Shown one piece after another: positions 1 through 63,748 of a DNA stretch of 64,000 bases (positions are counted from its first letter, which is position 1; each line of letters begins with the position of its first letter). The position numbers and the translations under genes were made by a program. Source of the DNA: a virus; the IMG/VR virus record IMGVR_UViG_3300045988_166360, positions 1-64,000 of that record. The stretch is one strand, 5' to 3'. The notes below the pieces were generated by a model. The model ran no database searches. It was not told the DNA's origin and saw only the letters and a list, made by a program, of their open reading frames with translations.

Positions 1-38
1 GGATACCACGGATACCACGGATACCACGGATACCACGG
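1..38. repeat. Tandem 9-bp repeat (GGATACCAC)x4 at window edge; in frame with the downstream giant ORF it would encode (DTT)n
   Basis: Exact 9-mer periodicity read directly; frame of ORF 71..5806 stays open back to base 2. Confidence 0.9.
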
Positions 39-70
39 TTCCTGTAGCTAAAGAGGAAGCCAATAAGATT

Positions 71-3000
71 GTGGCTCCCGTACAGGAATTCCTGGACACG
101 GGCATGGGGAGACAGGAAGCAGAGGAAACCGTGGATGCCCTGACCGCAGGGACAGCTACGTTTGACCCCAACACGGGGGCCTGGTTAGCCCGCGGCTCCC
201 TTGAACAACGGGCGGAGAAGCTGGTGGTGCTTAATAGCATGACCAGCCCCACGGGACCCGTGGTTACTACGAACACCGGGGAGAGTATTGTCATGACCCC
301 GAACGCCAGTATGTATGCACCGAGTGCCAACCCCAAAGCGGAAGAGGCCCCTACTACCAAATGGGGGAACGCGGTCATGAGCCTGGGCTTGCCTCTGGAT
401 GGAAGCGGAGCCAATGGCATCAGCCTCTTGAATAAGGCAAGCACCCATGCCACCAAAGCTCAACAGAAAGCTATCGAAGGACTGGTGAAAGCCCTTAACG
501 CGGCGGGCCTTGACCTTGCGGTACGCATGAGCACTGCGAAGGACGGCAACCTTGCCCCGGCCATGATTACCTACAACATAGGTTCGGATGGGGAATTGTC
601 AGGTGGGGTTATTGACCTCTTCACCAACAGGGAGAACGCGGTGGAAGGCACTACGGGCACACTCATCCATGAAGCCATCCACCTTCTGGACAGGCATCTC
701 AGGAAGAACAACGCGGATTATGCCCGCGACATGGCCCATCTTCGTTCCGCGGTTGCCAACCGATTTAATGACATTCATGCCATCCTGCGGGAAGCTTATG
801 ACGGCAGTCTTGACCCAAATGAAATGAACGCTATCGCGGCGGTCATGAATGACATTGCCTACGGGCTCAGAGGGGCTGACGAATTTGCTTCTGTAGTGTT
901 CTCCAATCCCGTCATCAATTCCCTCGTGGCAGGCATCACCGGGAAGAACGCAGACATAAACATGCTTTCCCGGTACGCGGAAACCACGGGAGCCAGGAAG
1001 CCAATCCATACCCGCATCATTGACTGGTTGCGTAACTTGTTCCAGGAGATTCGGAATGAAATGAGTGATGCCCCGATACTTGAGGAATCGGAATGGAACG
1101 ATTATGTCCAGCGGGTTGCGGATGTTCGCCCGGACGGAGCATGGTACAGCATCGACCGACCTGAAACCTACGGGGTTAATGTCACAGACTACACCGGGAA
1201 TAAGTTGGGAGAAAACTATTTTAACCCAATGGCTTATGAAGGAGACCTGTCTCAGAAGCTAAGCTTCGGCGTGGCCGCGGAACTTGTGGGTTCAGCCTCC
1301 GGCAACTGGGCGACCGTGATTCGGAACGCATGGTACAGAGCCCGTCAGGATGAACTGGGTCTCAGCATTCCGTCCCCTCAGCAACGGCTGGTGTTGCAGG
1401 AACAAATGGTAAACCTGCAATCCGCGTATGAACGTGTGAATGAACGGTTGGGCAAAGTCAAAGAAGTGCTGAACAACTATGCGGTTTCAAACAACCTGTC
1501 CCCGGAAGCCCAGAAAAAACTGGCAACTTCCATTCTGAATACCGCGGGCAATCTGGACAATGACATTGAACCGGAAACCGTAGCCCGTATCAATAAGGAA
1601 ACCAATGCCGAAATCGCATCCCTTAAAGAAGCCCGCAACTATCGGATTAGCAGGGCCAAACAACATGTGCAGAACGTGGTCAACCGGAACGCTGAACTTG
1701 TCCGTGCGGCCAACCTCATGGCTAACACCAGCGAAGGACGCGCCTCCATCAATGACATGATTCGTTTGCTGAACGAAGTGAGCCGGGAAGGATATTCGGC
1801 CACGGTCAACGCGGAAGCAATGGCTCCCGATATGGACCAAAGGCTCACGGAATCCATGGGTTCCTTGGGTAACTTGGTCCAGAAGTTGGAGAATGAAGCT
1901 CTCGCTTCCCGGTACTATGCCCTGGCCCAAGACACCCGGAGTTACATCCTGAATCAGATAAACGGCGTAGAATCCCCCTTCACTCTGGATGAATTGCAGG
2001 AAGGATGGGAAACCCTGCGTGCCGATTATCTGCGAAAGGAGCTGTCTAAAAATATCAAGATTGCCAACATGCTTCAAAACATTAAGGAAGCAAAGGCTCA
2101 AGCGCGGGAATGGATTAAAGAAGCCAACGCGGAATACGCACAGGCCACGCGCCATTCGGGTGTTAAAGCGGATGGAACTGTAGTAGAACCCGGTATCGTA
2201 TGGAAGAAACGGGATGCCGCCCTGTTGGAAGCCCGAAGGAAGAAGCAGGCTGAATTCATGAAACGCAGAGAGGAAGCAGAAAAATACCTGCAATCCCAGG
2301 GAGTCATTGGAAAGCTTGTGTACAACGCTATTGTCGATGCACGCAAGGAAATCGCAGTCACTCAAAAAGTTATTGCCCAAATCACAGGGGACAGTAAAAT
2401 GGCTGACAATGCCCAGCGCATGGACTACCTGCACCGCACCTACTTTGCAGTCGGGAAATTTGGGCGAGACTATACGAAGGCTATGCGGGATATTATCAAC
2501 AACCCGTTCAGTTATGTGGCCAAAGAATATAAAGGTCTCACTCAACTCCTTAACGAAGCGGCAACCATCCACGCCGAAACTCACCAGCGGAATCTGGCCG
2601 AAGCCGTAAGCGGAGTCATTGACAACATGCAGGCACTTGCAACTCTTCATGATGAGCTGGGGCTTGAGCTGGTTGTGCCTGTGGCCAGAAGCAATTCCAA
2701 CAACAGGCTTCTGTTTAACGGGGTTGAAAAGAGTATGCACAGTGAGAACATTCTGGATTTCATTCATGAAAACTATGGCGAAATCCAGCTTGCCGCTGAC
2801 CTTAAGGACGGAGATAACATGTCGGACATCTACGATAAAGCCATGTCCATGATAGAACAGAGCGACAGGTATACTTCAAGGCGTGTGGCTAAGGTCAAAC
2901 AAAGGCTTCGCACAGAGGCTCAAGACCGCTATCTTGCCAGCCTTCTTCCTGAAGTCCCTGGGGAAACTATCCAGGACAAACTGGGCACCTTTGATTCCGG

Positions 3001-5806: not shown

Positions 5807-5833
5807 ACAATATTAAAACCTTGACGTATAGGG

Positions 5834-5869
5834 GGCATGGGGAGTACACTTCCCCATGCCTTCTTTTCG
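5834..5869 (+). terminator. Stem-loop (10-bp stem GGCATGGGGA/TCCCCATGCC) followed by a U-rich tract; either a terminator after the giant gene or a start-codon-sequestering structure for the next ORF
   Basis: Inverted repeat read directly; ATG of ORF 5856 lies inside the 3' arm. Confidence 0.45.
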
Positions 5870-6467: not shown

Positions 6468-6483
6468 CAATAATAAACACACA

Positions 6484-6511
6484 AGCCCAGCAGGGAAATC
6501 CCTGCTGGGCT
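6484..6511. terminator. Strong bidirectional hairpin (13-bp stem AGCCCAGCAGGGA/TCCCTGCTGGGCT) between convergent genes
   Basis: Perfect inverted repeat between the stop of 5856..6467 (+) and the stop of 6601..6960 (-). Confidence 0.7.
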
Positions 6512-6600
6512 TGATGCTAAGAACCCAAACACTATAGTCCAAATAAAAAGACTATCGTTGCGGGATTTTTATATCATGTTATTATTTAAAGTGTCAACCT

Positions 6601-6960: not shown

Positions 6961-7018
6961 TGTATTACTTTTTTAAATTTGTTGGTCTTTCCTGGCAACG
7001 CAAGTATAAGGCTAGAGG

Positions 7019-9016: not shown

Positions 9017-9045
9017 TTAGTGGTATTGTAAATTAAGTTTTTATG

Positions 9046-9300: not shown

Positions 9301-9329
9301 TTAATGGTATTATAAATTAAGATTTTATG

Positions 9330-10132: not shown

Positions 10133-10694
10133 CTTCTACACGTTGTTGCAAAACTTCCTTGCTGATATAGGAGTATTCAGAAAGCTTCAACACTTTCTGG
10201 CTTACGACACTGGCCAGGACTGTAAAATACCTGAAGGTATTAAAGGGTTCCTTGGATTCCTTGGATTCCTTGGATTCCTTGGAATGATAGGAGACAAGCA
10301 TATGAACAGCCATAACAAGAACAATAGCACGGACTATCGTATTTGTATCTGTGTACATGGCACACGCTTTTCCTTCATTCTCAATTTCCTGAGTGAACAT
10401 GACATAATCCCGGAGTTGAGTGACATATTCCACCGCCTTTTCCAGCATAAATTTAATCCCTTGAACCGGGGGAGGCACGACTCCGGGGAACAGGGAAGCG
10501 GCATGTTCCCCAATCGCCACGGCTTTTTCAGCCACCTCTTCCGCAGAAGCATTTTTAGCCAAGCCGAAATCAGGGATGGATTCCCAAGCCAGTTCCAGTT
10601 CTGCCTTAAGCTTAATGAATTCCGGCTCTTTCATCTCCTGGGCCACCGCCTCTGTAACAGCGTCAAGGACAATTTCTTTTTTAATATCAGTCAT
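10104..10694 (-). CDS. Hypothetical protein (196 aa) containing a (KES)4 tripeptide repeat
   Basis: Translation KESKESKESKE encoded by the 9-bp tandem array at 10249-10288. Confidence 0.55.
   Translation of the reverse strand: MTDIKKEIVLDAVTEAVAQEMKEPEFIKLKAELELAWESIPDFGLAKNASAEEVAEKAVAIGEHAASLFPGVVPPPVQGIKFMLEKAVEYVTQLRDYVMFTQEIENEGKACAMYTDTNTIVRAIVLVMAVHMLVSYHSKESKESKESKEPFNTFRYFTVLASVVSQKVLKLSEYSYISKEVLQQRVEDAKSKIILN
10249..10288. repeat. Tandem 9-bp repeat (CCTTGGATT)x4, i.e. (AATCCAAGG)n on the coding strand
   Basis: Exact periodicity read directly; member of the GGAAYCC-core repeat family. Confidence 0.9.
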
Positions 10695-10699
10695 ACTTC

Positions 10700-11907: not shown

Positions 11908-11944
11908 TCTAGTGTCAGGGGTTAAAGTTATATAAAGATTCTAA

Positions 11945-19951: not shown

Positions 19952-20002
19952 TTTTAATGATTTCTATTGTTTTATTTCCCCCGGATTCCGGGGAACAGGG
20001 TC

Positions 20003-20030: not shown

Positions 20031-20040
20031 CCCACGGTTT

Positions 20041-20076
20041 CCGCGGTATCCGTTGATTCCGCGGTATCCGTTGATT
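20041..20076. repeat. Direct 18-bp repeat (CCGCGGTATCCGTTGATT)x2
   Basis: Read directly. Confidence 0.9.
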
Positions 20077-20141
20077 CTTAGGTAGTTGTGATTGTGTCAT
20101 ACAAGATTTTCCGGGTTCCGTGGGCACAGGGGATTCCGTGG

Positions 20142-20196
20142 CTTCCGGGGGTTCCGGGGGTTCCGGGGGTTCCGGGGGTTCCGGGGGTTCCGGGGG
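20142..20196. repeat. Non-coding tandem 9-bp repeat (TTCCGGGGG)x6, i.e. (GGAACCCCC)n on the minus strand
   Basis: Read directly; same GGAAYCC-core family as the coding arrays. Confidence 0.9.
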
Positions 20197-20280
20197 TCAA
20201 CTTTTATACACCATACCTATACCCCTATGGGTATAAGAGTACAATATATAGGGCCCCCCCCCCTCAAACTGGTCAAATAT

Positions 20281-22440: not shown

Positions 22441-22736
22441 CAGTTAACCTGTTGAAAATCAACCTGTTATGAATAGTTTTACCAAAAACTATTTTTGAAC
22501 CCCCGGAGTCCAAGGAACCCCCGGAATCCACTCTCCGACATCATGTAACATGTTCGAGATTAGTGGCTTACAAAAATAGTTGTGACCTCCTTTCTGCTTC
22601 AACTACAAAACGTAATTTCTTCTATTTCAATGACTTCTCATCCACACACAGCTCTCATCTACCCGGGTGTAGTCCAGCAAAGAGCTGTCCTCACCCTCTG
22701 AATGTCAGTTTCAGATACAAACCTGACACTTTTCGC

Positions 22737-23463: not shown

Positions 23464-26328
23464 ATGACGACACAAAACAACAATACGCCGGAGGACGATT
23501 TGGAACTTACATTCACGTCACTCCGTCTTAGCCAGTTGCAGTTCAAAACAAAAGGCACGAAACTCGCCACAGCGGGAAGTTGCAACCATTCAATATCCAT
23601 TCCATTGAGGGACGTGCTTTGTCTCTTTAAAGGGGAGAAGATTACCAACCCGGAACTCATCCGGTTCTCCTATCAGGTGAAAATGTTCCAGGCAATGCAG
23701 AATCTGGTAGATGAAGAATCTCTTTGTCTCCCGCCCCTGTATACCCGGATATTAGCGCAATGGAAGAAGCTGGGCCTCACGCCGGGGGAACTAAAACCCT
23801 CGCTCCCTGCTGTTGTGCCCTCTGTTCAGTTCCTGGGCAAACCCGGTTTCTATGACTTTTCCGCAGGTTCCTGTTACTACACTAACCGCAGGCTTGTCTC
23901 CGTTGACGGAACTTCCTGGCGGCATACAGGTGTCTTCGGCATTGACGTGGACCTTAAGGAAAACCCGGAACATACTGCGGAGTCATTACTGGATGTGGCT
24001 CGCGCCAAACTCCCGGGCCTTGACGGCTTTCTGTTTGCCTATGTAAGTCCGAACCGGGGGCTTAAGATTTTCTTCCAGGTCTCTCATCAGAATCTGCAAC
24101 AGCTGAATCAGATGCCTCAGCTGGAAGGTGAAGAAGGAGAAGAGCTGGATGTAAAGCGTTTGGCCAATGAGCGTGCTTTCCTTCATAATGTCGTCTACTA
24201 CAAATTGGCTGATTATGTAGCTAAGGAAACGGGGTTTGTTCTGGACATGGCCTGCAAGGACCCGGCACGGATGCAGTTTCTCTATCTGGGAACCTTTATC
24301 CCCGGAACCCAAGGAACCCCCGGATTCCATGTAAGCAACATTGCCGAAGTAAAGGAAGCATACCTGAGAGATGCGAAGAATCGTCCAGTTAATTCGGAAC
24401 TCCCCAGCGTAGCTCCCGGTTCTCCTAAACCCAAAATTCTGGTGGATTTCATTCGTTGGCTTAAAGTCAATGAGTACCATGATACGGCCCAGGGCCTTGA
24501 GCAAATGGACTATGTTAAGGGTGATGGGTGCCTCTACGGCGAATGCCCTCAATGTCGTGGCGGGAGGTCTGAAGTCAGCACAAATCTTGACCTTAGATTT
24601 TATCCTCACCCACAGTATGCAAATCGTTCCTACTTCTATTGCTTCCATGCCAGTTGCCATGGTGCTAATCCCGATGTTGTGTCTGTCCAATGGCTCTTCA
24701 ATCAGTACCTTGCGGATATTGAGGCTGAAGTGGAAAAGAATCTGAATGTAGAAGTCTGGTGTCAGGACCCTTTGCTGATGAAATGTTTCATGCAGGGGTT
24801 GAGCCCTGTCAACTCCAACGCCTCAATACCTGATGTCAGCTCTGCGAAACTGCGTCGGCTGGATTACCCTTATGTTAAACAGTCCAAGACAGGGAAGCTG
24901 ATACCTCTTCTGACCGACAGGAATATTGGTCATCTTCTGCACTATGGACTTAATATCAGGGTGTTCCGTCGCATGAACACCCAAGAGCTTCTCCTTTTGG
25001 ATTTCAAGAACTGCAGGTGGTACGAAACCAACCCGGCTATTCTGTCCCAGATTTCCGGGTTCTGGCAGGAGGTGGTGCCGGGACAGGCTATTCCGGCGCA
25101 ACGCCTGATGGATGCGTTGCGTAATCTGGCGCAGAGCAACTACTATCACCCATTGGCAACATTCGCCAGTTCGCGCCCCTGGGATGCTCAGGACCGTCTT
25201 CGCAATTTCCTTGACTTCTTTGTCATGGACCAGACTGTGGAAATGCCCGAAGGCTGGACTCCTGACTCCTATAGGGATGCAGTCCTTACCACCTGGCTCA
25301 TCTATCTCTGGAAACGTGTCGCCATGCGTCTCGACCTAAACCCCACAGGCACCGTGAATCAAGGGTTCCCCCAGAACTATGTACCTGTGTTTTCCGGGAA
25401 GCAGGGTGTAGGTAAGACCAAAGCTACCGAATGGCTCTTCAATGGGTTGTCCATTGATAAAGCTCAGTCCATTGAAGGTTCAAACAGCGCAGACTCTACG
25501 GTTCAGATGTCCCGGCACTCTGTTATCGTACTCGACGAAATTGATGAGGAAGTATCTAATAAAGCCAAGCAGAGCAAGCTGAAACGGATTCTCACCGGAG
25601 AATCGGACAACTGCCGTATTGCTTATGGGTCTGCACCGTCAACCTATCACTATTGCGCCAGTGTCATAGGGTCCACCAACCAAAGCCAGTTCCTGCGGGA
25701 CAACTCCGGCTCCCGTCGTTATTATCCGCTTATTCTTGGTGAACGTCCGAAACCAAAAGAACCTCTGCCCGAAGGTGTAGATGTTAACTGGGATGCCGTT
25801 AAGAAGCTGTTCGAAATGGATAACCAGCAACTCTGGGCCCAGATTAAGTACATGGTGGATTCCGGGGAAGCTGATAAGTACAGCTGGTCGAAACTGGTTA
25901 AGGTTGGTGAATACGTAGCTTCGAATTACGCCAGTTGCCAGGGGGACGATACGGACCTGGTGAAATATCTGGTGCCCGTGGCTCTTAAGGATACGGATGT
26001 GTCGGGGGGCCGTTTGTCCAAAAAGATTCCCGGAAATTTTACAACCATGCGAAATGTCCTTGAATACGTGCGAGTTACCTGGGGTAACGGGTCCCGGCAG
26101 GAAGGCTGGGATGATAAGAATTTTGAGCGCGACCTTGCTCAAGCGTATGGGCGGGATTCCCTGATGAAGCATAGTGTCCGGCGTGAGTGTGACCCAGGTC
26201 CGGTTCAACGTTATTTCTTCCTGCCTGTTGACCTGTGGATGAAGGAAGCCAGCAGGGAAACAAAGGAGCGAATCTATGCACAGTACCCCCATATTGAGAA
26301 ATTGTCACAAACCTCGCTCGAAAGTTAA
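23464..26328 (+). CDS. Primase-helicase fusion: N-terminal archaeo-eukaryotic-type primase/polymerase domain (GIDVDL motif), Cys/His zinc-binding segment (CPQCRGG...CFHASCHG), C-terminal SF3/D5-like P-loop NTPase (GKQGVGKT Walker A; VIVLDEID Walker B)
   Basis: Motifs read in translation; 954 aa. Confidence 0.8.
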   Translation: MTTQNNNTPEDDLELTFTSLRLSQLQFKTKGTKLATAGSCNHSISIPLRDVLCLFKGEKITNPELIRFSYQVKMFQAMQNLVDEESLCLPPLYTRILAQWKKLGLTPGELKPSLPAVVPSVQFLGKPGFYDFSAGSCYYTNRRLVSVDGTSWRHTGVFGIDVDLKENPEHTAESLLDVARAKLPGLDGFLFAYVSPNRGLKIFFQVSHQNLQQLNQMPQLEGEEGEELDVKRLANERAFLHNVVYYKLADYVAKETGFVLDMACKDPARMQFLYLGTFIPGTQGTPGFHVSNIAEVKEAYLRDAKNRPVNSELPSVAPGSPKPKILVDFIRWLKVNEYHDTAQGLEQMDYVKGDGCLYGECPQCRGGRSEVSTNLDLRFYPHPQYANRSYFYCFHASCHGANPDVVSVQWLFNQYLADIEAEVEKNLNVEVWCQDPLLMKCFMQGLSPVNSNASIPDVSSAKLRRLDYPYVKQSKTGKLIPLLTDRNIGHLLHYGLNIRVFRRMNTQELLLLDFKNCRWYETNPAILSQISGFWQEVVPGQAIPAQRLMDALRNLAQSNYYHPLATFASSRPWDAQDRLRNFLDFFVMDQTVEMPEGWTPDSYRDAVLTTWLIYLWKRVAMRLDLNPTGTVNQGFPQNYVPVFSGKQGVGKTKATEWLFNGLSIDKAQSIEGSNSADSTVQMSRHSVIVLDEIDEEVSNKAKQSKLKRILTGESDNCRIAYGSAPSTYHYCASVIGSTNQSQFLRDNSGSRRYYPLILGERPKPKEPLPEGVDVNWDAVKKLFEMDNQQLWAQIKYMVDSGEADKYSWSKLVKVGEYVASNYASCQGDDTDLVKYLVPVALKDTDVSGGRLSKKIPGNFTTMRNVLEYVRVTWGNGSRQEGWDDKNFERDLAQAYGRDSLMKHSVRRECDPGPVQRYFFLPVDLWMKEASRETKERIYAQYPHIEKLSQTSLES

Positions 26329-27307: not shown

Positions 27308-29211
27308 TGGAAAGTGCTACTGCTTTGTCTCTCCCGAAGGTGCCTGGCTATGACATGGAGATTACGGAGGACCAGACGAAACTGGCGGGCCCTGTCCTTG
27401 CGATTGACTTTGAAACTTTTTATGAAGGGGAATATTCCCTTAAACGAATGGACCCCCGGTCCTATTGCACCCACGAGAAGTTTGACGCATATGTCATGTC
27501 GGCCTACGATGGGAAGTATTGCTGGGTGGGGCATCCTAAAGAGTTTAACTGGGCAGAAACCACCAGAGATAAAATCATTGTTTCTTTCAACGCCAGCTTC
27601 GACTACGCCGTTTACCTGTTTGGACTGAAAGCCCCCGGAAGCCACGGAATCCCCTGTACCCCCGGATTCCGCACACCCTTCACTGCCTGGCTCTGTTCAC
27701 GCGCGGCCTCCAATTATCTGTCCATATATGGCTCACTGTCGGAGATAGTGCTTCGTTTATGGAACATTGCGGTCAGCAAGGAAGTCCGGGCCAGGGCAGA
27801 GGGCATCGACTTCCGTACCCTGGATGCGATTCCCGAAGATATGAAGGAATACGTGGCGGGCGACTCCTACTACTGTTACGCTGTCTGGGACAAGTTTGAG
27901 CGTTTCTGGCCGGAGCATGAACGCGAGTGTTGGCTGAACACCTGCATCATGGGATGGAGGGGCGTGCCGACCAGCCGCGCGGCTGTTGAGGAAGGACTGG
28001 AACTGCTGAAGGAGGCAAGGGAACAGTATAAGGAAGCCATCCCCCTGGAAAAGAAACTTTCCCTTCTCCAACTCCGCAAAGCCTGCCAGGATTTAAATAT
28101 CCCCCCTCCTGAAACAACCAGCAAGGCCAGTGAGAAATTTACGGACTGGCTTGAAACTTACGGAAAGCTTATTCCCTGGGTAAGCCTTTTGGGCAAGTAC
28201 CGGAGCGTCAACCGTCTTATTTCTCTGACGGAGCGCATGCTTTCCCGTGTCTATACCGACCATGAAGGGGTGGACCGGATTCCTTACACGCTTACCTACT
28301 GTGGAGCCAGTACGGGACGCTGGACAGCCGGAGGTGACAAATTAAACCTGCAACAGCTTAACCGGGATAAGGTTGGGGAGTTTAGCCAGCGGGAACTTAT
28401 TCAGGCACCTCCCGGGTATAAGCTGGTGGTCTGTGACTGGGCCGGGATTGAAGCCCGCCTCACTGCCTGGCTTTGCGGGCAGGAAAAAATTCTTGAAACC
28501 CTCCGCGCAGGTGAAAAGGACATCTATGCCGCTAACGCGAAAGGCTGGGGCCTTATCCCTGATTCGGTGACAGATTTCAAGGCATACTGCAAGGAGACCC
28601 CCGGGCAGGAAAATCTTCGCCAGCATGTGAAAGCCGGGGTGCTTGCCTGTGGTTTCAGTGCGGGATGGTCTGCGATTCAACGCACCAATCCGGGCATGGA
28701 CCGAAACCAGTGCCAGGCCATTGTCGATATGTACCGGAGCCGGAGCCCGGAGGTGGTCGCGTGGTGGCGGGAACTTGACGCACTGGCGGCCCGCGGCTAC
28801 CGGACTCCTTCCCACAGTTTTGCCCTCACCCTGCCCTCCGGGCGAAAGCTGTATTATCGTAACTGTTACAAGAAGCTTATCCAGCCCAAAGACGGGAGGC
28901 GGCCCTACTTCGCAACCTGTGTCAATTTCGGGAAAAAGACTTCCATTGTAAATACTAACCTGTTGAGCAACAACAATATCCAGGCTATTGCCCGCGACCT
29001 GATGGTTCGCGCTTTCAACAGATTCTGCAAGGAATTGCCCGGGGCCAGCCCGTGTCTTCTTGTCCATGACGAAGCTGTGGTTATGGTTCCCGCGGACAGC
29101 GCGGAGGAATACGCACAGCGGATTGAGGAAATCATGGAGGACACTCCCCAATGGGCGAACACCCTGCCTCTCCTTGCCGAACCGGAAATCATGGAGAAGT
29201 ATAGGAAATGA
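27307..29211 (+). CDS. Family A DNA polymerase with 3'-5' exonuclease domain
   Basis: Exo I (LAIDFETF), Exo II (NASFDYAV), pol motif A (DWAGIEARL), motif B (RQHVKAGVLACGFSAG), motif C (LVHDEAVV) in translation. Confidence 0.9.
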   Translation: MESATALSLPKVPGYDMEITEDQTKLAGPVLAIDFETFYEGEYSLKRMDPRSYCTHEKFDAYVMSAYDGKYCWVGHPKEFNWAETTRDKIIVSFNASFDYAVYLFGLKAPGSHGIPCTPGFRTPFTAWLCSRAASNYLSIYGSLSEIVLRLWNIAVSKEVRARAEGIDFRTLDAIPEDMKEYVAGDSYYCYAVWDKFERFWPEHERECWLNTCIMGWRGVPTSRAAVEEGLELLKEAREQYKEAIPLEKKLSLLQLRKACQDLNIPPPETTSKASEKFTDWLETYGKLIPWVSLLGKYRSVNRLISLTERMLSRVYTDHEGVDRIPYTLTYCGASTGRWTAGGDKLNLQQLNRDKVGEFSQRELIQAPPGYKLVVCDWAGIEARLTAWLCGQEKILETLRAGEKDIYAANAKGWGLIPDSVTDFKAYCKETPGQENLRQHVKAGVLACGFSAGWSAIQRTNPGMDRNQCQAIVDMYRSRSPEVVAWWRELDALAARGYRTPSHSFALTLPSGRKLYYRNCYKKLIQPKDGRRPYFATCVNFGKKTSIVNTNLLSNNNIQAIARDLMVRAFNRFCKELPGASPCLLVHDEAVVMVPADSAEEYAQRIEEIMEDTPQWANTLPLLAEPEIMEKYRK

Positions 29212-30572: not shown

Positions 30573-31794
30573 TAAAGTACCAGCGGATAATTCCGCGGAC
30601 ACTCACAGTAAATACAGCCCGAGTTCGATTGCCATGCTCGCAACCTGTCCGGGATATATTCCCCGCCCTATGACACAGGATGAAGAAGAGGATGAATTTT
30701 CCCCCTCTGCCGTGGGCACCCGAGTCCACGGAGCCCTGGAAACCCAGAACCCGGATATGCTTTTAACCCGGCATGAGCGTTCCCTTTATAACGCGGCCAA
30801 CAATATGCTGGGCATTTTGCGGGAAATGTTTACCAAAGAGGTGGGAACTGCGGAGTTCGAAGCACTGCCCGAACACAAGTTCCCCGGTATCCGTTTTAAC
30901 CCGGATGACCCGGAACAGACGGGGACTGCCGACGTTTTATTCCGACATGGAAATACCTCTATGATTGTGGACTACAAGATGGGCATTGTGCCCGTGTCCA
31001 ACCCCGAGGTTAATAGTCAGTTTATTTATTATGGGTTGTTGGAATTTGCAGAACGCCCTGAATGTGAAAGGATTATACTTGCAGTAATTCAACCGAGCCA
31101 GCAGGATGCGCTTAAGACCGCCGCCTTCTACCGGACGAAGGAATCACCGACATTTTCTTCCGACATGCCCACGGTATCCATGGATGCCGTGGAAGCCGTG
31201 GAATCCGTGGCTTCCGTGATTATGCGCCGCTGTAGGGATGCGGATAATCCGTATGCCTATTCTTCGTCGCCTCATGTCTGTCCCTACTGTGACCGACTGG
31301 CGACTTGTAAGAAGATTACCAGCATGGCCAGGAACTTCTCCCTTAAAGTATTGAAGGATAAGGAGTTAGCGGAAGGCATGATTGATAGTGTCGGGTCTGC
31401 CATGGATAACCCGGAAACCCTGGGTTCCCTTCTTTCCTTTGCAAGCATTATCAGCGAGGCGAATAAGGTGCATAAGGATTATGCCAAAACCCTGTTCTCC
31501 TGTGGGGTGGATGTCCCCGGCTGGAAGTACGCGAGCCGGGGAAGCACCGTTAAGGTGGACAATGATTCCTTCCGTGCCTACGTGGAACAATTTTTATCTC
31601 CGGAGGATATTCTGGACAACATATCCAGGCTCCCAGTCATGAAACTCCTGGACCTTCTGTTGGAGAAGTCCATGGAATCCGGGGTTTCCGGGAAGGATAA
31701 GAAGGCCGCTAAGGAATTACTGTTGAAGGAATTACAGGACCTGGGCATTGTACGTGAGGTGAAAGGCGCAATGGCTCTGTTAAAAATGAAATGA
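30559..31794 (+). CDS. PD-(D/E)XK nuclease of the Cas4/RecB-like family (phage exonuclease)
   Basis: DVLFRHGNTSMIVDYKMG core (D...D/E.K) and C-terminal Cys cluster CPYCDRLATC typical of Cas4-like FeS nucleases; alternative start at 30634. Confidence 0.6.
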   Translation: MTANNKVPADNSADTHSKYSPSSIAMLATCPGYIPRPMTQDEEEDEFSPSAVGTRVHGALETQNPDMLLTRHERSLYNAANNMLGILREMFTKEVGTAEFEALPEHKFPGIRFNPDDPEQTGTADVLFRHGNTSMIVDYKMGIVPVSNPEVNSQFIYYGLLEFAERPECERIILAVIQPSQQDALKTAAFYRTKESPTFSSDMPTVSMDAVEAVESVASVIMRRCRDADNPYAYSSSPHVCPYCDRLATCKKITSMARNFSLKVLKDKELAEGMIDSVGSAMDNPETLGSLLSFASIISEANKVHKDYAKTLFSCGVDVPGWKYASRGSTVKVDNDSFRAYVEQFLSPEDILDNISRLPVMKLLDLLLEKSMESGVSGKDKKAAKELLLKELQDLGIVREVKGAMALLKMK

Positions 31795-40394: not shown

Positions 40395-40707
40395 TATCTG
40401 GCCCACCTATACTGAGGAAGCGTTCAGGACCAACCCGAAAGCCCAGGGTTCCCTGTTCGAATTGTTGCAGGACCCTGTGATGCAGGAGGCCCTTCTTATT
40501 ATCCAGTCTAAATTGAATGCGTCCCTTCCATCCACTGTAGAAGCGGCGGCTCTTGCCGGAGCCTATGCCGCGGGAGCTCAGGCCGTAATCTCCGGCCTCC
40601 ATAGACTGGCGCAACCCATGGAATCCACGGAAGCCCCGGTAGCCATGGAACCCGTGGCTACCGTGGAACGGAACGCCTGGATTAACTCACTTAAACCTAT
40701 TATCTAA
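40387..40707 (+). CDS. Hypothetical small protein (106 aa)
   Basis: ORF trimmed to ATG overlapping portal stop. Confidence 0.5.
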   Translation: MSNIWPTYTEEAFRTNPKAQGSLFELLQDPVMQEALLIIQSKLNASLPSTVEAAALAGAYAAGAQAVISGLHRLAQPMESTEAPVAMEPVATVERNAWINSLKPII

Positions 40708-55365: not shown

Positions 55366-56088
55366 ATGGCCAGTAATAATAACCCCATGTCCGAAACACA
55401 ACCTAACCATGAGTTTGATGATTTTGTTTTCATCATTTTTGCGTACAACTCTACCCTGGACTGGCCGGAGCGTGAGCCTCTGCTTGTTCACTATTCTGTC
55501 AATTATCTGCTCAACCACGGAATCCCCGGAACCCGTATTACCGTTCTGGCCAATGACCTGTCGGTATGTTCCTGGGCAAACCAGCAGGGAATGAAGTTTA
55601 TCCAGCTTAAAGCCACAAACCGTAAAACGATTACGGAAGCTATATCCTCCATAATGGGGGAGAATCCGTGGAAGAATATCATATGTCTCAACACCGTATT
55701 TCCTGTGCGTGAAGCGGACCTCCTGTCTTTGATGTGCAGTCAAATCAGGACGGAAAAACAACGGCTCTTTCTCACTGCTCACATGGGAGCCCACCACCAG
55801 AAGGAAGATAACACAGTAACTTGGGATACTGTATTGAACGGAAGTATCTTGGGCTTTCGTCACGACTCTGATATTAAATCCATCTTCCATCCCGATACAT
55901 TGTATCCTGTGCATCACAATGCTGAATGCGGGAATTATAACATCTGCTACAGATACCAGTATATGAAGGAACCCCTGGAATCCGCGGTTGCCGTGGGTTA
56001 CAAAATGTCCGCATGGACTGCGCCCTGCCCATCAGAATATCCCCGCAGGGTGGAAATAAAGCTGGACAAGGACACAGCTACCCACTAA
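55366..56088 (+). CDS. Second, divergent cytidylyltransferase-like protein (KdsB/NeuA fold; degenerate N-terminal P-loop FIIFAYN) (240 aa)
   Basis: REPLLVHYSVNYLLNHG..RITVLAND..V..WANQQG parallels KdsB [37 protein letters not shown]. Confidence 0.45.
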   Translation: MASNNNPMSETQPNHEFDDFVFIIFAYNSTLDWPEREPLLVHYSVNYLLNHGIPGTRITVLANDLSVCSWANQQGMKFIQLKATNRKTITEAISSIMGENPWKNIICLNTVFPVREADLLSLMCSQIRTEKQRLFLTAHMGAHHQKEDNTVTWDTVLNGSILGFRHDSDIKSIFHPDTLYPVHHNAECGNYNICYRYQYMKEPLESAVAVGYKMSAWTAPCPSEYPRRVEIKLDKDTATH

Positions 56089-57437: not shown

Positions 57438-58161
57438 AATCAAAAAGATTCAACAGCTGGTAGGCGTAACTGCTGACGGCATTATAGGCCCTAAAACCAT
57501 TGACGCAATTCTTAAGCGGTTGACTTCGGATTCCATGGGTACCGGGGAATCCGTGGATGCTTATGAAATCCGTAACCGGATGGCCGCTAAAATCCTGAAC
57601 ATGGAAGACTATAAAATTACGGGGCCAGAATCCCTGCGGGTTACGCGCCTCCCCTCCGGTGATGGAGGCGGCACCCGGGAAATCGCAGGTATCTGCGACG
57701 GGATTGAACCGGAAGTGTTTAACCGGATTAAATCTCTGCTGGACAAGGGACTGCGGGAAGAAGCATGGGAGGACTGCCTCAGCTATGTACTTGAGAATAC
57801 GGCCACCATTGCAAGCTATTTTCCGAATTATGGTTTTGGCTACGAATTCATGGTGCGCGACCTGGCCTTTAACATGGGCAATGCCGGAGCTATCAAAGTT
57901 ATCCAGGGCATGGCCAACCGTGAGGGCACTGACGAGATTGCAGTGGATGGGAAGTGGGGCATTAAAACGCAGACAGCTTTGCTGGGGCTGACCTCAACCC
58001 TGCCCGAAGACTACGTGGTTAATGCTCTGGACAAAGCGGCCCGAACCCGTTACCAAAGTATTGTGGATGCCAATCCCGTCAAGGAAAAATTCCTCAAGGG
58101 GTGGCTCAACAGATGCGACGACCGCCTGGCTTTTGCTAATACTCTTGTGTCAAGCAAATAA
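57421..58161 (+). CDS. Peptidoglycan-binding-domain protein, endolysin candidate (GH108-like with PG_binding motifs) (246 aa)
   Basis: IQQLVGVTADGIIGPKTIDAI and DGKWGIKTQTALLG match the PG_binding_1/3 pattern lQ..lG...DG.iG..T..a; GDGGGTREIAGI resembles the GH108 DPGG.TkyGI block. Confidence 0.5.
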   Translation: MTQNNKIKKIQQLVGVTADGIIGPKTIDAILKRLTSDSMGTGESVDAYEIRNRMAAKILNMEDYKITGPESLRVTRLPSGDGGGTREIAGICDGIEPEVFNRIKSLLDKGLREEAWEDCLSYVLENTATIASYFPNYGFGYEFMVRDLAFNMGNAGAIKVIQGMANREGTDEIAVDGKWGIKTQTALLGLTSTLPEDYVVNALDKAARTRYQSIVDANPVKEKFLKGWLNRCDDRLAFANTLVSSK

Positions 58162-59049: not shown

Positions 59050-61915
59050 TACTGGTGCATCCAGCCCGCAACCGCCGATAATTCCAATAGGGACCACGGA
59101 CAGTTCGTGGCGCAACGGCCATGACCCGGACCGCCCCATGGGGGAACCCATTATCAATTTTCCCTATGCCGTAGTTAAGAACGTCATGTTCTTCGTGGAA
59201 CGGATTGTCAAAAATCCTAATGAACTGTCTGCCGAACTGGGGACTCCCTACAACCCCACTGCCGGGACCACCTTCCTCCCGTACATGCGGGAAGCGGTCC
59301 TGGTCCATGTGGAACCCGTAGCGGAAGACGCGCGTCGGCATATCTATCGGTTCTACTACATGGTGCCTCCCCAGGAGCAGTTCAAATACAACATCCAGGA
59401 TATGAAAAAAATTCAGGATGGGTATACGCTTAAGGACACGGCGGCGAACGGGAAGTTTATGAGCAGTGCGGCAGATGCCGACGACTTGAAAGATTTCTAC
59501 GAGATTACCCGGGAATGGGTGGAACCCACGGATTCCGCGTACACCCCGTTAGCCCTTGGTTCCTTTGACCCCAGCAACGAGAAGCTTGACCCTGACTTCT
59601 ATGACTTGCACGATTTCACGGGCTACGATGCCCAGCTGGTTTATGAAGAAGTAGGAAAATTTGAGGAAGACTACCTCAACAAATATTTCCGAAAAGTGTT
59701 GCGCGTGTATAAAACTCTCCCCGGTCCTGTTGTCAAGGAGTTCATGCCCAACAATATGTGGGTAAAGGGGGACACTGTATGGGAAAACGGCGGCCCCGGA
59801 ACTTCTGTTCCCGAAAACGAATGGGTGTCTCAAAACGCTATCAAACTTTCCCGCGAAGTGTGGGCCGCCCCTCTGTGGGAAGGGGAAGGCGGGCCGGAAC
59901 CTGGACAGGCGCGCATCCCCCATATGCCTACGGAAGAATTCGGGGAACAGCCCATCAGCACGGGGTGGGACAAGGGTTCCTACCCCAGCCTTCAGATGTA
60001 CACTATTGTGTCCATGTTCAAGCGCAATTCATCCATTGTGGAAAAGGAACAGCAGAACAGCCTTTCCGGCAACTGTTGCAACCCCGACTCCCGGTTCGTG
60101 CGCTGTATCAACACCACAGTGACGACCAGCCAGTCAGTGGACTGGACGGCCAACGGGGACCTTCCATCCATTGAACCCCCGGACCCCAGTGAGAACTGTA
60201 GCCAATGGAGGGTGGATAGTAGTGTGGTAGTCCGAGAAGGGTATAGCCAGAAGGAAACCCGGAAGCAATGCACTACGTATAAACAGATTGACGAGTTCTG
60301 GGAATCCCAGTTCGACCGGATTACGAACCAGGTTTATCCGGTGCTTCGCAAAATCGTGCACGACCCCTCCACCGACTTCGACACGGTATGGCAGGAAGAA
60401 GGGTTCAAAAAATACACGGATGCCGTGGGTAATGTTTACTACGGGCGCAAGCTGGAAAACCCGACAATCGAAGTTCCGGTTTCCATCCCCGACACCCCCT
60501 GGACCCAGCTGACTTATTCCCTGAACGATTTTACCGCTTCGGAGGACAACCCCAGCCCGAGCGGCATGCTCACCAATTTCAGTACGGTCAACCCCTGGAA
60601 CAGCCCCAGTTATCCGAACTACGCCGGAACCTTCGCGTTCAACTGCGAATATACTTCCAACAATACCGGGGATGACAGGGGCACCGTGGTTTCCATCAAC
60701 TTCAAAGGAAACCGCTGGTGGCCTATGTATATTCAAAACAGCTACCCCACTTCGGAGTCTCCGGGAACAATTACTAATTCACCGCACTACGTGAACATTA
60801 ACCCTGACGGTCCCTGGTACACCCAGAACGGCCAGTACAAAGTCAGAGGGGAACTTTTCATAACTGACACCCTGTATGCCGAAGGGGTCACTGGCCAGAC
60901 CTGGACTTTCCCCATAGGTTATATGGACGGTTCAGGTGTGTACCAGCGCAACAATTCCTATAACCCGGAAATGAAATTTACCGTAGGAGCTTTGCCTACG
61001 GGAATCAGCAACGCTTACCTGGACGTGGAGTTGGGCCAGTTGAATCTTCATTGCTGGATTGAAAACCCAGACAACTCTAATATCACCGGGACTATTCCCA
61101 TACTCCTGAACGGCACAAAAATATTTGACATCGAAGTTTCCGGTGTAGTCAGTACCGGGAACGAACCTCCGAACGTAAGCAGTTCAAGGCTCGCCAAAGC
61201 CGACTATACGGACGGGACCTACGTCCTCAAATCCGAAGTCGTTAATAAGCTGGACATGACGTTCAACTGCCAACGGTTCCCTTACTGGCAGTTTGGAGTA
61301 ACTATAGCCAGCTTAAACGGCAATACCTATAAACGGGAAACAAGCACCGAAGTGTCCCGTGTAGTCCTCCGGCAGTGGGTGAACCCCTGCTACGCTGTGG
61401 ATAGCTACATGCAGGTTCCCGGTATTGGATATTACCGGAAATATACCACCACCATGAACTACAGTTTCCCGCCAGTCCTGGGAAGCGTCATGTGGATGCC
61501 GTGGAACACCCGGCCCGATATGTCCGGGAAAGGAGGCGGCCAATACTTCCCTACGACAACCATGTCTCAGGACTCCTATTCAGGCCCCTGCACGGCAATT
61601 GTGGAAGAACTGTTCAGCCCGGATGGTTCCTGGCCGAACACCTGGGGCCTGGGAACAACTCCGCAGTATATTACCAACAGCGGGTATTTCTCCACGCCGT
61701 TGGTGGATTTCCGTCTCCCAGCCTGCCTCCACCCTAACCTGAACTTTGTCGTGACAATCGGAAACCAGGATGCCAAATGGCAACCCGGCCAATTCACATG
61801 CACCTTCCCTTCCACCTCTGTGACCACCTGGCAACCCGTAACTTCCTACTACGCGTCCCCGTGGAACGGCGGCATGCTGTGCAAGAAAGTAACCATCTAT
61901 CCTCCAACCGCATAA
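59033..61915 (+). CDS. Large tail protein, receptor-binding or tail-spike candidate (960 aa, Trp/Tyr/Asn/Gly-rich)
   Basis: Size, composition, position after lysis genes in the tail region. Confidence 0.6.
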   Translation: MPLIPNTGASSPQPPIIPIGTTDSSWRNGHDPDRPMGEPIINFPYAVVKNVMFFVERIVKNPNELSAELGTPYNPTAGTTFLPYMREAVLVHVEPVAEDARRHIYRFYYMVPPQEQFKYNIQDMKKIQDGYTLKDTAANGKFMSSAADADDLKDFYEITREWVEPTDSAYTPLALGSFDPSNEKLDPDFYDLHDFTGYDAQLVYEEVGKFEEDYLNKYFRKVLRVYKTLPGPVVKEFMPNNMWVKGDTVWENGGPGTSVPENEWVSQNAIKLSREVWAAPLWEGEGGPEPGQARIPHMPTEEFGEQPISTGWDKGSYPSLQMYTIVSMFKRNSSIVEKEQQNSLSGNCCNPDSRFVRCINTTVTTSQSVDWTANGDLPSIEPPDPSENCSQWRVDSSVVVREGYSQKETRKQCTTYKQIDEFWESQFDRITNQVYPVLRKIVHDPSTDFDTVWQEEGFKKYTDAVGNVYYGRKLENPTIEVPVSIPDTPWTQLTYSLNDFTASEDNPSPSGMLTNFSTVNPWNSPSYPNYAGTFAFNCEYTSNNTGDDRGTVVSINFKGNRWWPMYIQNSYPTSESPGTITNSPHYVNINPDGPWYTQNGQYKVRGELFITDTLYAEGVTGQTWTFPIGYMDGSGVYQRNNSYNPEMKFTVGALPTGISNAYLDVELGQLNLHCWIENPDNSNITGTIPILLNGTKIFDIEVSGVVSTGNEPPNVSSSRLAKADYTDGTYVLKSEVVNKLDMTFNCQRFPYWQFGVTIASLNGNTYKRETSTEVSRVVLRQWVNPCYAVDSYMQVPGIGYYRKYTTTMNYSFPPVLGSVMWMPWNTRPDMSGKGGGQYFPTTTMSQDSYSGPCTAIVEELFSPDGSWPNTWGLGTTPQYITNSGYFSTPLVDFRLPACLHPNLNFVVTIGNQDAKWQPGQFTCTFPSTSVTTWQPVTSYYASPWNGGMLCKKVTIYPPTA

Positions 61916-61919: not shown

Positions 61920-62657
61920 ATGGCGTTCATTACTAAATCCTATTTGACGTATCGAAATGTATGCGACGAATTGTGTATGCTCATTACCAATACGCCGCCC
62001 TCCAAAACCAATGTTGACTTCCGCAGGATTCTAAAAGAAGCCCAGAACCTCCTGCTTAACGAAGCCACGGTATCCCCGGATTCCATGGCAACTCTTGACT
62101 TCGAAGGGATTGAACGGGACGGAACCATATCCTTGCCGGAAGAATATGACAGTATCGTTGAGGCATGGACTCCGGGGGGCCAGAGGTACAACATTGTTGA
62201 CCGGGCCATGTTCGAATCCAACACCTGGTTCCGTAGCGAGTACCCCCGCAGGCCGCACGGTTCCCCTCCCCTCATGGTGGACATGGGGCTAAATGACAAA
62301 AACCTCCGCACCTATGCCGTACTGTCTGGTAGCAATGGCATTAACGACCAGAACAACACCATGACCGTGACCGCGCGTTGCGCCCTCCGCGGGCTGTCCC
62401 TGAATGTTTATGACGACAGCGCATGGGAAGATGAAGAGGTCCGCATTTATCCGGGATGTCTTCCCGCCCTCAAGGCCATGATGCTGTCCGTAGTCTACAA
62501 TGAACAGGGCAATACCCAGATGGGCACGGACAGTTACGGACTGGCAGTCAAATACCTGAACGACCATCTTCGCAAATACCGTCAGGGCACCTATCAGGCA
62601 CCCAACATTATTCAAGTGGGTGGCCTGATGCAGAGCCCCGGACTTAATCTCATGTAA
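61920..62657 (+). CDS. Hypothetical structural protein (245 aa)
   Basis: ORF. Confidence 0.55.
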   Translation: MAFITKSYLTYRNVCDELCMLITNTPPSKTNVDFRRILKEAQNLLLNEATVSPDSMATLDFEGIERDGTISLPEEYDSIVEAWTPGGQRYNIVDRAMFESNTWFRSEYPRRPHGSPPLMVDMGLNDKNLRTYAVLSGSNGINDQNNTMTVTARCALRGLSLNVYDDSAWEDEEVRIYPGCLPALKAMMLSVVYNEQGNTQMGTDSYGLAVKYLNDHLRKYRQGTYQAPNIIQVGGLMQSPGLNLM

Positions 62658-62662
62658 CCCTT

Positions 62663-63748
62663 ATGGCAACTCAATCTACAGCTACAAGTAATGAAGGGAA
62701 GAACCCCGTAACCAAGTCTCCGCGGCAGAAGATTACTGAAGAAGTTCTGCCCAAGGTAAACCCCGACGTGCCGCTTCGCCCCAGCTCCAACAACGACCCG
62801 AACAAACCTGTCGATGCTAAGGCATTGAACGAAGTGGCCGCGGCCAACAGCAACCACGGAATCCAGAGACCTCCGGGAACCCCGGAAAGGCCCAGCGCGG
62901 CCTACTGGGCCAGCAAGGGAATCACGGAACCCACGGTTCCAGGTGCCGCGGACCCGAACAGCAGAGCCTATGCGGAAGCCCAGCGGGCCAGTTACCAAAA
63001 ACTCATAGCCCAGGGGCCGACCGCAGAGGACAGGCTTCTCATGAGGGGCGTGGACCAGAATGTAAGCAGAGGGCAGATGCCTGTAATCAGAGGACCTGAA
63101 CCCGCCGTACCCACGGGACCCACGGTACCCACGGGACCCGGGGGTCGAACTTCCGCGTCTTCGAATCTGACCTTCGGGGACTTCAGTGCGAAAATGAAGA
63201 ATGACCTCCCCCCGGAACAGTATAAACTTTTCCAGTCCCTGTCTCCCGCTGTACAAACAAACCTATACAACAGGTTTAAAGCGCAACAGATTAGACAGAT
63301 GGGAACCACGGGAACCACGGGAACCACGGGAACCACGGGAACCACGGGAACCACGGGAACCGTGGGGGCCTTGCCTGCCGGGGGTTCTCCCATACCTACG
63401 GCAGAAACAACCCCGCTGGGACGGGATGAAAAAATGCTGAATGTTCTGCGGGACTCTACAGCAGACCCGCAAGCCAGGGCTCAAGCCAAAGCCTATCTGA
63501 CGGTCAAGACCATGTATGCCCAGAAAGGAAAATACGCAAACGAAATTAAAGCCCTGGAACGAGGTGCCCGCGCTTACCGTAAACAACTGGACAATATGTT
63601 CAAAAATACTTTGAACCGAAGGGACCCGCGGTACCAACAACAGTATGACCACCTAAGATTGCTGAGGAAGAACAACCCGCAGGCGAAACTTATCATGTAC
63701 ACGGAACTGTTGAAGAGGCCGGAGTTTGCTTCTCTTAGATTCAAATAA
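62663..63748 (+). CDS. Low-complexity structural protein with (PTG)3 and (GTT)7 tripeptide repeats and basic C-terminus (361 aa)
   Basis: Repeats encoded by the 9-bp tandem arrays at 63107-63139 and 63301-63363. Confidence 0.6.
   Translation: MATQSTATSNEGKNPVTKSPRQKITEEVLPKVNPDVPLRPSSNNDPNKPVDAKALNEVAAANSNHGIQRPPGTPERPSAAYWASKGITEPTVPGAADPNSRAYAEAQRASYQKLIAQGPTAEDRLLMRGVDQNVSRGQMPVIRGPEPAVPTGPTVPTGPGGRTSASSNLTFGDFSAKMKNDLPPEQYKLFQSLSPAVQTNLYNRFKAQQIRQMGTTGTTGTTGTTGTTGTTGTVGALPAGGSPIPTAETTPLGRDEKMLNVLRDSTADPQARAQAKAYLTVKTMYAQKGKYANEIKALERGARAYRKQLDNMFKNTLNRRDPRYQQQYDHLRLLRKNNPQAKLIMYTELLKRPEFASLRFK
63107..63139. repeat. Tandem 9-bp repeat (CCCACGGGA/CCCACGGTA)x3 to 4
   Basis: Read directly. 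Confidence 0.85.
63301..63363. repeat. Tandem 9-bp repeat (GGGAACCAC)x7
   Basis: Read directly; encodes GTTGTTGTT... Confidence 0.9.

Follow-up and report, generated by a model that had tools for sequence, protein, structure and literature searches.

Why should one and the same 9-bp repeat stand in genes as different as a DNA polymerase, an exonuclease and a baseplate-like protein, and also in the non-coding DNA of the same phage? The question is raised by the window analyzed here, i.e., the whole stretch of 64,000 nucleotides formed by positions 1-64,000 of IMGVR_UViG_3300045988_166360, which holds most of the genome of one uncultured phage. The original prediction for this DNA was a genome-wide family of 9-bp tandem arrays with a shared GGAAYCC/CCACGG core, in which the constraint would lie on the DNA and not on a peptide. 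The five tandem arrays that it listed are present, at or within a few bases of where it placed them, and they do share one core, which is better written CCNNGG (Table 1). We find that this family, hereafter the lattice, is real, unusual and lineage-specific. The mechanism behind it is partly shown, in that both slippage and inter-locus copying are documented. The reading that we prefer, with a probability of roughly 45%, is that of a self-propagating, lineage-specific repeat family that slippage and short-patch copying, in either orientation, have spread and that is filtered by what the proteins tolerate.

The pattern is a strict one. The common core CCNNGG recurs with strict 9-bp spacing in units of the form CC-(RY/CC/GG)-GG-N-W-N, and the window contains 41 loci with at least two perfect in-register units, as well as 28 runs of at least three units. 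The two-unit pattern CCNNGGNNNCCNNGG was observed 69 times, versus 1.4 in dinucleotide shuffles, and its three-unit form 28 times, versus 0.0. Distances between CCNNGG cores peak only at 9, 18, and 27 bp (49, 23, and 15 pairs, versus a background of about 2), with no peak at 3, 6, 12, or 15 bp, and these peaks are restricted to cores in which NN is RY, CC, or GG. A position weight matrix yields the consensus GG-A-W-T-CC-R-Y-GG, and 89 of 99 unique units have A or T at the centre of the spacer. Outside the arrays, isolated CCRYGG is no commoner than other CCNNGG words, so that single words are not enriched genome-wide. The longer degenerate motif GGAAYCCRCGG, which had been put forward for an enrichment check, has 9 matches versus 0.15 expected, all of them on the plus strand. 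The spacing peaks, together with the dinucleotide shuffles and the synonymous shuffles described below, led us to reject an origin by chance or composition.

Within genes, such a pattern could also be a by-product of the encoded peptides, if low-complexity linkers of the type [S/T/P/A]-x-[D/E] were combined with codon usage and recent tandem duplication. Ser, Thr, Pro, and Ala are indeed most often encoded by NCC, and the perfect (VEP)n, (TEP)n, and (MEP)n repeats of unrelated viruses give the same DNA pattern in the same phase. Yet, when codons were shuffled synonymously within genes with the proteins fixed, a control that had been called for at the outset, 56 two-unit matches were observed versus 5.6 in the shuffles, and with the perfect arrays masked there were still 41 versus 4.9, the maximum over 300 synonymous shuffles being 10. 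Codon choice in the arrays departs from that of similar peptides: NCC and NNG make up 84 and 80% of the respective array codons, versus 39% each in isolated [STPA][TVMAPG][DEGAV] tripeptides elsewhere, and the third codon ends in A or T in 86% of cases within arrays versus 55% elsewhere (p=3e-8). Given this W rule and the preference for NCC and NNG, all three wobble positions of each unit are specified (C, G, and W). Furthermore, Met (ATG) is over-used as the middle codon, seven of the 41 loci are non-coding, and the single-position base frequencies of the sense strand are reverse-complement symmetric (N3 versus complement of N4, p=0.53; N7 versus complement of N9, p=0.89), which those of the control tripeptides are not (p=9e-8). 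An explanation by peptide and codon usage alone is thus contradicted by the shuffles, codon choice, W rule and symmetry, and we hold it to be very improbable. The evidence points to a constraint that lies on the DNA and not on the peptide alone, in agreement with what had been proposed, and, as over-represented DNA words do, the lattice both exceeds what codon usage would lead one to expect and is conserved at synonymous sites.

The arrays are nevertheless far from indifferent to the reading frame. Among the 34 coding loci, 28 are in phase 1 (NCC-NNG-GNN in the gene's own direction, or NCC-NNG-GNW in its fuller form), which encodes [S/T/P/A]-x-[E/D/V/G/A], four are in phase 2 and two in phase 0. 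The earlier view of copies that occur in varying frames and on either strand is therefore to be given up, as most coding loci share one phase and all GGAAYCCRCGG matches share one strand. A DNA-level element that persists only where the proteins tolerate it would be expected to have such a frame bias, by analogy with uptake sequences. The list of dispersed copies also needed pruning: several of them are real arrays, but 62037-62062 holds no copy, the true run adjoining it at 62065-62088, and only weak matches, of 1.5-2 units or out of register, are present at 45487-45510, 55517-55540, 59520-59545, and 62862-62900. As for the 62065 run itself, its conservation was rejected as a specific signal, its whole neighbourhood being highly conserved. 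Two further runs, at 32823 (DPGxHG) and 31400, coincide with protein motifs conserved in all relatives and are thus probably coincidental look-alikes.

Comparison with related phages, represented by public contigs (numbered with the prefix L), revealed variation in copy number in multiples of 9, which had been one of the suggested checks. In three strains (from a group 96-99% identical), the (GTT)n array at 63306 has about 7, 6, and 10 copies; 9-bp indels separate strains at the 57524 and 63102 arrays; and the (STD)n tracts in the primase linkers of relatives range from 2 to 7 copies. The distal non-coding array comprises 10 units in the window versus 2 in L277, with a difference of 54 bp (6 units). 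The array at 10250-10282, in turn, has the same copy number in the six close strains that span it, a seventh contig (L270) ending inside it. Sequence changes accompany those in length: one unit of the 31169 array has three alleles among strains (GT, GC, and AC), and the three strain alleles at 63102 differ by a 9-bp indel and many substitutions, with CC/GG cores that are nearly all intact (the sole exception is an edge unit, CTACGG, in L039). Copy number thus varies between close strains, as in contingency loci. On-off switching by frameshift or by promoter spacing was not found, since a 9-bp unit always keeps the reading frame, and the non-coding array that varies is located upstream of the -35 hexamer and not between -35 and -10.

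Assemblies also end at the arrays. Logan contigs L265-L270 end at the 1-38 array, where several independent assemblies break, and L264 ends inside the 63306-63383 array. The independent Logan/ENA contigs that end inside the arrays at 1-38, about 20158 and 63306-63365 are L264-L270 and L274. The arrays hence act as assembly breakpoints, and their true lengths may be under-estimated. The 1-38 array is itself cut by the window and contig end, and its 4.2 copies are therefore a lower bound; its orthologue in L041 consists of 7 imperfect units with other spacers.

Besides changing in length, arrays have been copied between loci. In the distal non-coding array, positions 20103-20151 form an inverted copy of PolA 27632-27680 (49 nt, 84% identity). 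Copied along with the rest is CCCCTGT, an off-lattice unit that PolA requires for a conserved Cys. Among 300 unit-shuffled sets, 299 yielded a shorter exact match than the 25-nt core seen here (P=0.003), and resampling, a second lattice-preserving null, gave P=0.017. The orthologous array in L277 is devoid of the PolA-like segment, pointing to a recent acquisition in the lineage of the window, for which the PolA array was likely the donor. The non-coding array at 22501-22530 is 90% identical over 30 nt to primase positions 24300-24329, here as a direct repeat. Inter-locus matches are seen in both orientations. Finally, in relatives, a 22-nt exact string with off-lattice units, CGGAACCCCCGCAAGCGACGGA, is common to a primase linker (L019) and to an array on an unrelated locus anchored by gene 62663 (L065), and a 19-nt version of it in L058 would, by our own placement, belong to the giant-protein array.

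At 31169, 40616, 27633, and 31670 the lattice stands where distant relatives have ordinary sequence of equal length. Overwriting of orthologous sequence at equal length would follow from copying without length change, and reverse-complement symmetry from copying in both orientations. Moreover, the lattice is its own reverse complement, so that a patch copied in either orientation keeps the frame, which would explain both the spread and the symmetry. Copying of another kind is performed by diversity-generating retroelements, in which case a (CCAAGGAAT)n-like template would be copied with adenine-specific errors to give CCNNGGNNT units. The invariant positions are C or G and the variable ones A-rich, the (CCAAGGAAT)4 array at 10250-10282 is stable, and the arrays are hypervariable between strains, as expected under this scheme. 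But Pfam scans of about 60 window open reading frames (ORFs) contained no reverse transcriptase (RVT family), the targets are counted in dozens (41 loci) in unrelated genes and do not form one adenine-limited pair of variable and template repeats, and change at the variable positions is about as fast as neutral, without acceleration, with a bias of NN to RY that adenine mutagenesis does not predict. The lattice is accordingly no member of this class, and among the explanations considered here hypermutation is the one to which we give the least credence.

The lattice is restricted to one lineage. Two-unit matches number 3-14 per 22 kb in relatives whose TerL is 85-91% identical. In the sister clade with 56-61% TerL identity they number 0-2, which is about background, and no different 9-bp motif was seen there. 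Across all IMG/VR, the three-unit pattern CCRYGGAAYCCRYGGAAYCCRYGG occurs in 61 stretches, 43 of which are on contigs of this clade, the remaining ones being the perfect repeats of unrelated viruses mentioned above. In bacteria, the pattern was found mainly in soil and marine taxa (many of them high-GC), with no gut genus among the matches listed. Several three-unit matches on single contigs were observed in metagenome-assembled genomes of Gemmatimonadales, Gammaproteobacteria, Marinobacter, and Oceanisphaera (L141, L153, L157, L165, and L172), which suggests unrelated repeat families with a similar lattice.

In the account that we prefer, replication slippage would let arrays expand and contract, short-patch copying between arrays, through gene conversion or template switching on 9-bp microhomology, would seed new arrays and homogenise existing ones, and selection on the proteins would retain in-register copies in the tolerated phase NCC-NNG-GNW, in poorly constrained segments. 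Linkers variable in length and sequence, and small patches of homology at module boundaries, would be the likely consequences. The protein encoded by 62663-63748 fits this picture, as both of its arrays lie in segments of the AlphaFold2 (AF2) model with a predicted local distance difference test (pLDDT) score below 50 (125-167 and 214-251; mean of the model 57.5) and flank a predicted helical module (171-213) that relatives exchange as a cassette, the 63102 array being a homology breakpoint in relatives. Clear cases of homology discontinuity are found at 63102/63306, 57524, 40616, and 31670. In public data this protein is highly diverse (more than 200 clusters at 90% identity, 343-386 aa), and the same two positions are occupied in other relatives by different low-complexity repeats, e.g., (QATATPR)n and (STASKG)n.

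Several observations weigh against this account. There are only two or three clear donor-recipient cases, and the association of arrays with homology discontinuities is modest, with 17% of comparisons in the top decile versus 10% expected, an excess too small for us to retain arrays as general recombination breakpoints. In the AF2 model of the exonuclease (mean pLDDT 61.7), the 31169 array forms a coil and a helix (210-226, with block means of 83 and 66), so arrays do not always lie in disordered linkers. Old, heterogeneous arrays such as that at 40616 have kept CC and GG intact, which copying and slippage alone leave unexplained. Substitution rates, expressed as the fraction of positions identical to relatives of 80-89% identity, point in the same direction: inside arrays, NN (0.76) and spacer positions (0.66-0.72) diverge much like third codon positions outside (0.64-0.66), i.e., at about the neutral rate, and non-synonymous core sites are 0.94 identical, but synonymous core sites (0.81) have only about half the rate of change of the same codons outside arrays (0.65). 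Matched-codon Fisher tests were significant in five of ten relatives (L041, p=0.008; L025, p=0.002; L042, p=1e-5; L066, p=2e-4; and L047) and not significant in L003, L004, L013, L001, and L039. This slow change could be due to concerted evolution; purifying selection on a binding site would give the same result. Lastly, the promoter-proximal array at 20032-20082 and the -35 hexamer that it abuts are 100% identical in L277, in a left arm that is 87% identical overall, and this conserved array may additionally be a regulatory site.

The last two observations are shared by a serious rival of the repeat-family account, according to which a two-fold symmetric DNA-binding protein, encoded by the phage or by its host, would recognise each unit as a binding box (about TCC-RY-GGA plus one W). 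The arrays in the 2.6-kb non-coding spacer would then be the primary operators or iterons, and the genic arrays additional sites wherever the protein tolerates them. Synonymous core sites that are better conserved than matched codons, reverse-complement symmetric frequencies with dyad axes at RY and W, and the strict 9-bp register are all compatible with such a protein. So is the over-representation of arrays in the spacer (19952-22562), which has five of the 41 loci in 4% of the window and in which contiguous short repeats (20032-20195) lie directly upstream of a near-consensus promoter-like site, as is typical of operators and iterons. The only candidate binders encoded in the window are a winged-helix and a Zn-ribbon protein (Table 1), and no regulator is linked to the motif. 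Other points speak against binding: isolated CCRYGG cores are not enriched, the number and position of arrays turn over fast between close relatives, the distal non-coding array ranges from 2 to 10 units, the full unit is biased to the sense strand (GGAAYCCRCGG, 9 versus 0), and off-lattice hitch-hiker units copied between loci argue for copying and not for convergent selection. On balance we deem binding possible, and clearly less probable than the repeat family.

The two accounts are not mutually exclusive. A combined version, which strikes us as slightly more doubtful still, would see in the synonymous and loosely constrained positions a strand-symmetric "lattice code". A dimeric DNA-binding protein would read it, be it to control early genes, for the function of an origin or to organise the genome, and the code would at the same time be a substrate for orientation-independent patch copying; the linkers would thus be triple-purpose. 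Among the roles originally suggested, binding sites and recombination signals are possible, the direct evidence consisting only of copying between arrays and of slippage. A role as modification site finds no partner, neither a methyltransferase nor another modification enzyme being present among the about 60 scanned ORFs, and nothing points to a packaging signal. A resemblance to DnaA boxes (ATCCAC within GGAATCCACGG) was dropped by reasoning only, as the GT, CC, and AT core variants do not fit.

A function at the level of mRNA also has to be weighed, either as CCNNGGA(A/U) sites for an RNA-binding protein (e.g., a CsrA-like GGA binder) or as translation-pacing hairpins at domain boundaries. 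Nearly all coding arrays are sense-oriented and in one phase, and the 9:0 sense bias of GGAAYCCRCGG would suit an RNA motif. A two-unit hairpin (19979-19993) lies at the predicted 5' end of the early, leftward transcript, where it might act as an RNA hairpin, and, relative to dinucleotide shuffles, heterogeneous arrays show stronger single-strand folding (z -2.2 to -4.5). Perfect arrays do not fold, however, and the folding of heterogeneous ones is no better than that of lattice-preserving permutations (P=0.2 and 0.65), indicating that hairpin potential is a property of the lattice and not additionally selected. Reverse-complement symmetry is not required of an RNA motif, GGA is present in just about half of the units, and the promoter-like site has the largest non-coding arrays on its upstream side. 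We therefore judge an mRNA-level role improbable. A candidate G-quadruplex potential was noted for (GGGAACCAC)7 and (GGGGGTTCC)6.

How does the lattice relate to repeat systems already known? Collagen-like repeats of phages differ in copy number and are regarded as an aid to the exchange of modules. They are described as 9-bp (Gly-X-Y) repeats that separate domains in antireceptor or tail-fibre genes, e.g., in Streptococcus thermophilus phages (PMC5601072, citing Duplessis and Moineau 2001). The lattice resembles them by its in-frame 9-bp period between domains, best seen in 62663-63748 with its two arrays around a swapped helical cassette. It differs from them in that Gly occupies every third residue only in the (GTT)7 and (PTG)n arrays, i.e., in the (TTG)n of 63306-63365 and partly at 63102-63143 (the four phase-2 loci read x-P/H-G), in that it extends to replication enzymes and non-coding DNA, and in its rules at synonymous sites. 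The polymorphic GC-rich sequences (PGRS) of Mycobacterium tuberculosis vary between strains and are read in frame. They are built on a 9-bp consensus, CGGCGGCAA, found at many loci (PMC3914561). Both are thus multi-locus families of tandem 9-bp units, but PGRS form long arrays in one paralogous family (PE_PGRS), whereas the lattice has 2-10 units, lies in unrelated genes of a 68-kb phage, and is reverse-complement symmetric.

DNA uptake sequences are over-represented in genes, show reading-frame biases, and sit at poorly conserved residues (PMC2817400), and the cyanobacterial highly iterated palindrome HIP1 is conserved within and between ORFs, its function being still unknown (PMC5861425). 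With these the lattice shares the nature of a DNA-level motif far above expectation inside genes. Unlike these single scattered words, its isolated cores are not enriched, and it forms a phased tandem lattice that changes copy number. Operator boxes offer another parallel. The 8-bp metboxes of MetJ and the 7-bp heptads of the omega protein are contiguous head-to-tail boxes, in either orientation, upstream of promoters, and the array at 20032-20082, likewise made of spacerless boxes, abuts a -35 hexamer. In contrast to them, most copies of the lattice are inside genes and its arrays are unstable in number. The lattice therefore belongs to none of these systems (collagen-like repeats, PGRS, uptake sequences and HIP1, operator boxes), and combines a phased tandem lattice, synonymous-site rules, reverse-complement symmetry, and presence in unrelated genes of one lineage.

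Table 1. Lattice arrays, promoter-like site and selected genes of the window. TRF, Tandem Repeats Finder.
Feature	Coordinates	Strand	Remarks
(CCACGGATA)n	1..38	+	At least 4.2 copies, period 9, 100% matches (TRF); phase 1, (TTD)n, giant ORF
(CCAAGGAAT)4	10250..10282	-	Phase 1, (SKE)4, ORF 10104-10694; TRF 10248-10283, 4.0 copies
CCCCGGAATCCGGGG	19979..19993	-	Two complementary units, 6-bp stem, just downstream of promoter-like site
Promoter-like site TTGACA-16-TGnTATGAT	20030-20003	-	Near-consensus sigma-70 type; conserved in L277
Promoter-proximal non-coding array	20032..20082	-	18-bp unit AATCAACGGATACCGCGG twice, plus AAACCGTGGG; abuts -35 hexamer
Distal non-coding array	20103..20197	-	(CCCCGGAAC)6, then CCCCGGAAG CCACGGAAT CCCCTGTGC CCACGGAAC; TRF 20113-20197, 9.4 copies, 84% matches; no covering ORF with start codon
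Non-coding 3-unit array CCCCGGAGT CCAAGGAAC CCCCGGAAT	22501..22524	+	Adjoins AT-rich tract 22352-22429
Phase-2 array, VapE-type primase-helicase, IPGTQGTPGFH	24300..24332	+	Relatives keep IPGTPGTP there
Phase-2 array, DNA polymerase A, APGSHGIPCTPG	27633..27665	+	Peptide conserved; lattice spelling only in this lineage
Six-unit phase-1 array, PD-(D/E)XK/DUF2800 exonuclease, PTVSMDAVEAVESVASV	31169..31219	+	
2-3-unit array, exonuclease, SMESGVSG	31670..31693	+	Lineage-specific
PMESTEAPVAMEPVATVE	40616..40666	+	C-terminus of ORF 40345-40707; six perfect cores, six different NN/spacer combinations
Three arrays, tail/baseplate-like protein	45481-45522, 45610-45651, 45922-45936	+	N-terminal part of protein 45354-47132
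Three-unit phase-1 array, PLESAVAV	55973..55996	+	ORF 55366-56088
Four-unit phase-1 array	57524..57556	+	PG_binding_3 protein 57421-58161
Three-unit phase-1 array, ATVSPDSM	62065..62088	+	ORF 61920-62657; in all relatives
Five-unit array PAVPTGPTVPTGPGG	63102..63143	+	ORF 62663-63748; TRF 63109-63139, 3.4 copies
(CCACGGGAA)6-7, then degenerate units	63306..63383	+	(GTT)7, ORF 62663-63748; TRF 63301-63361, 6.8 copies
Zn-ribbon protein	9566-10132		
VapE-type primase-helicase	23464-26328		
Family-A DNA polymerase (PolA)	27307-29211		
Large terminase (TerL)	33322-35157		
Tail/baseplate-like protein	45354-47132		BppL_N and Phage_tail_C domains
MarR/ArsR-type winged-helix (wHTH) protein	51699-52055		
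PG_binding_3 protein	57421-58161		

The genome that carries the lattice is transcribed in two directions, as judged from its genes, which point leftward from 5813 to 19951 and rightward from about 22563, with the non-coding spacer in between. In addition to the genes of Table 1, the window encodes a helicase and further tail/baseplate-like proteins. The early block comprises, on the minus strand, ThyX (Thy1 family) and a DUF3310 protein (8041-8730 and 7019-7519), with no further nucleotide-modification gene detected. Comparison with L041 indicates that about 3.7 kb are absent between position 64000 and position 1, and this missing part appears to lie inside the giant ORF that spans the window ends (63863-64000 and 2-5806), the protein of which has about 3200 aa judging from L041 and no Pfam family in a Pfam scan.

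Within the spacer, we found three copies of a 25-nt sequence, CTGTCAAGAAAAATCGACACGCGGC (at 20804, 21107, and 21374), two copies of a 40-nt repeat (at 20281 and 20349), an intrinsic terminator (21336-21367), an AT/poly-A tract (22352-22429), and a C9 run near 20255. Neither a tRNA nor a known RNA family (Rfam) was found in it, and its 23-nt repeat was not found in IMG/VR. The spacer may be an origin or a set of RNAs. The promoter-like site at 20030-20003, if functional, suggests a host with promoters of the canonical sigma-70 type. Further intergenic repeats were observed in the leftward gene block. One is a duplication (18339-18650 and 19208-19522; 244 nt at 98% and 82 nt at 90%) in which the loop of a GC-rich hairpin is inverted between the copies (GGGCCGCCGAAACGGGCGGCCC versus GGGCCGCCCGTTTCGGCGGCCC). 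The other is a 97-nt repeat of 73% identity (15742-15838 and 17642-17738), possibly representing repeated promoter or regulatory regions.

As to the phage itself, no match was found among GenBank phages either by megablast or by tblastn with TerL, and the identity of PolA to GenBank phages is at most 27.5%. IMG/VR, ENA, and Logan contain many related contigs, 68-73 kb in length, one of which is labelled "human gut metagenome". The left arm (1-26326) is a mosaic replacement with its boundary at the end of the primase gene (26326), as strains 97-98% identical to the right of this point have no detectable similarity to the left of it. The left arm matched only short Logan/ENA contigs and one 87% relative (L277, metagenome contigs), and no relatives of it were found in IMG/VR.

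Each of the two principal accounts would bear on the biology of this lineage. If the units formed a binding code, they would be a rare case of dense dual coding, with a protein sequence and a protein-binding lattice written genome-wide in the same bases, and they would provide a handle on regulation in an uncultured gut phage lineage for which neither megablast nor TerL searches found relatives among GenBank phages. If the lattice is a self-propagating repeat family, as we prefer to think, it would offer a clean small-genome example of a DNA-level drive that shapes protein linkers and the mosaic boundaries of phages, and it would explain why assemblies break at fixed places in an abundant clade of gut phages.

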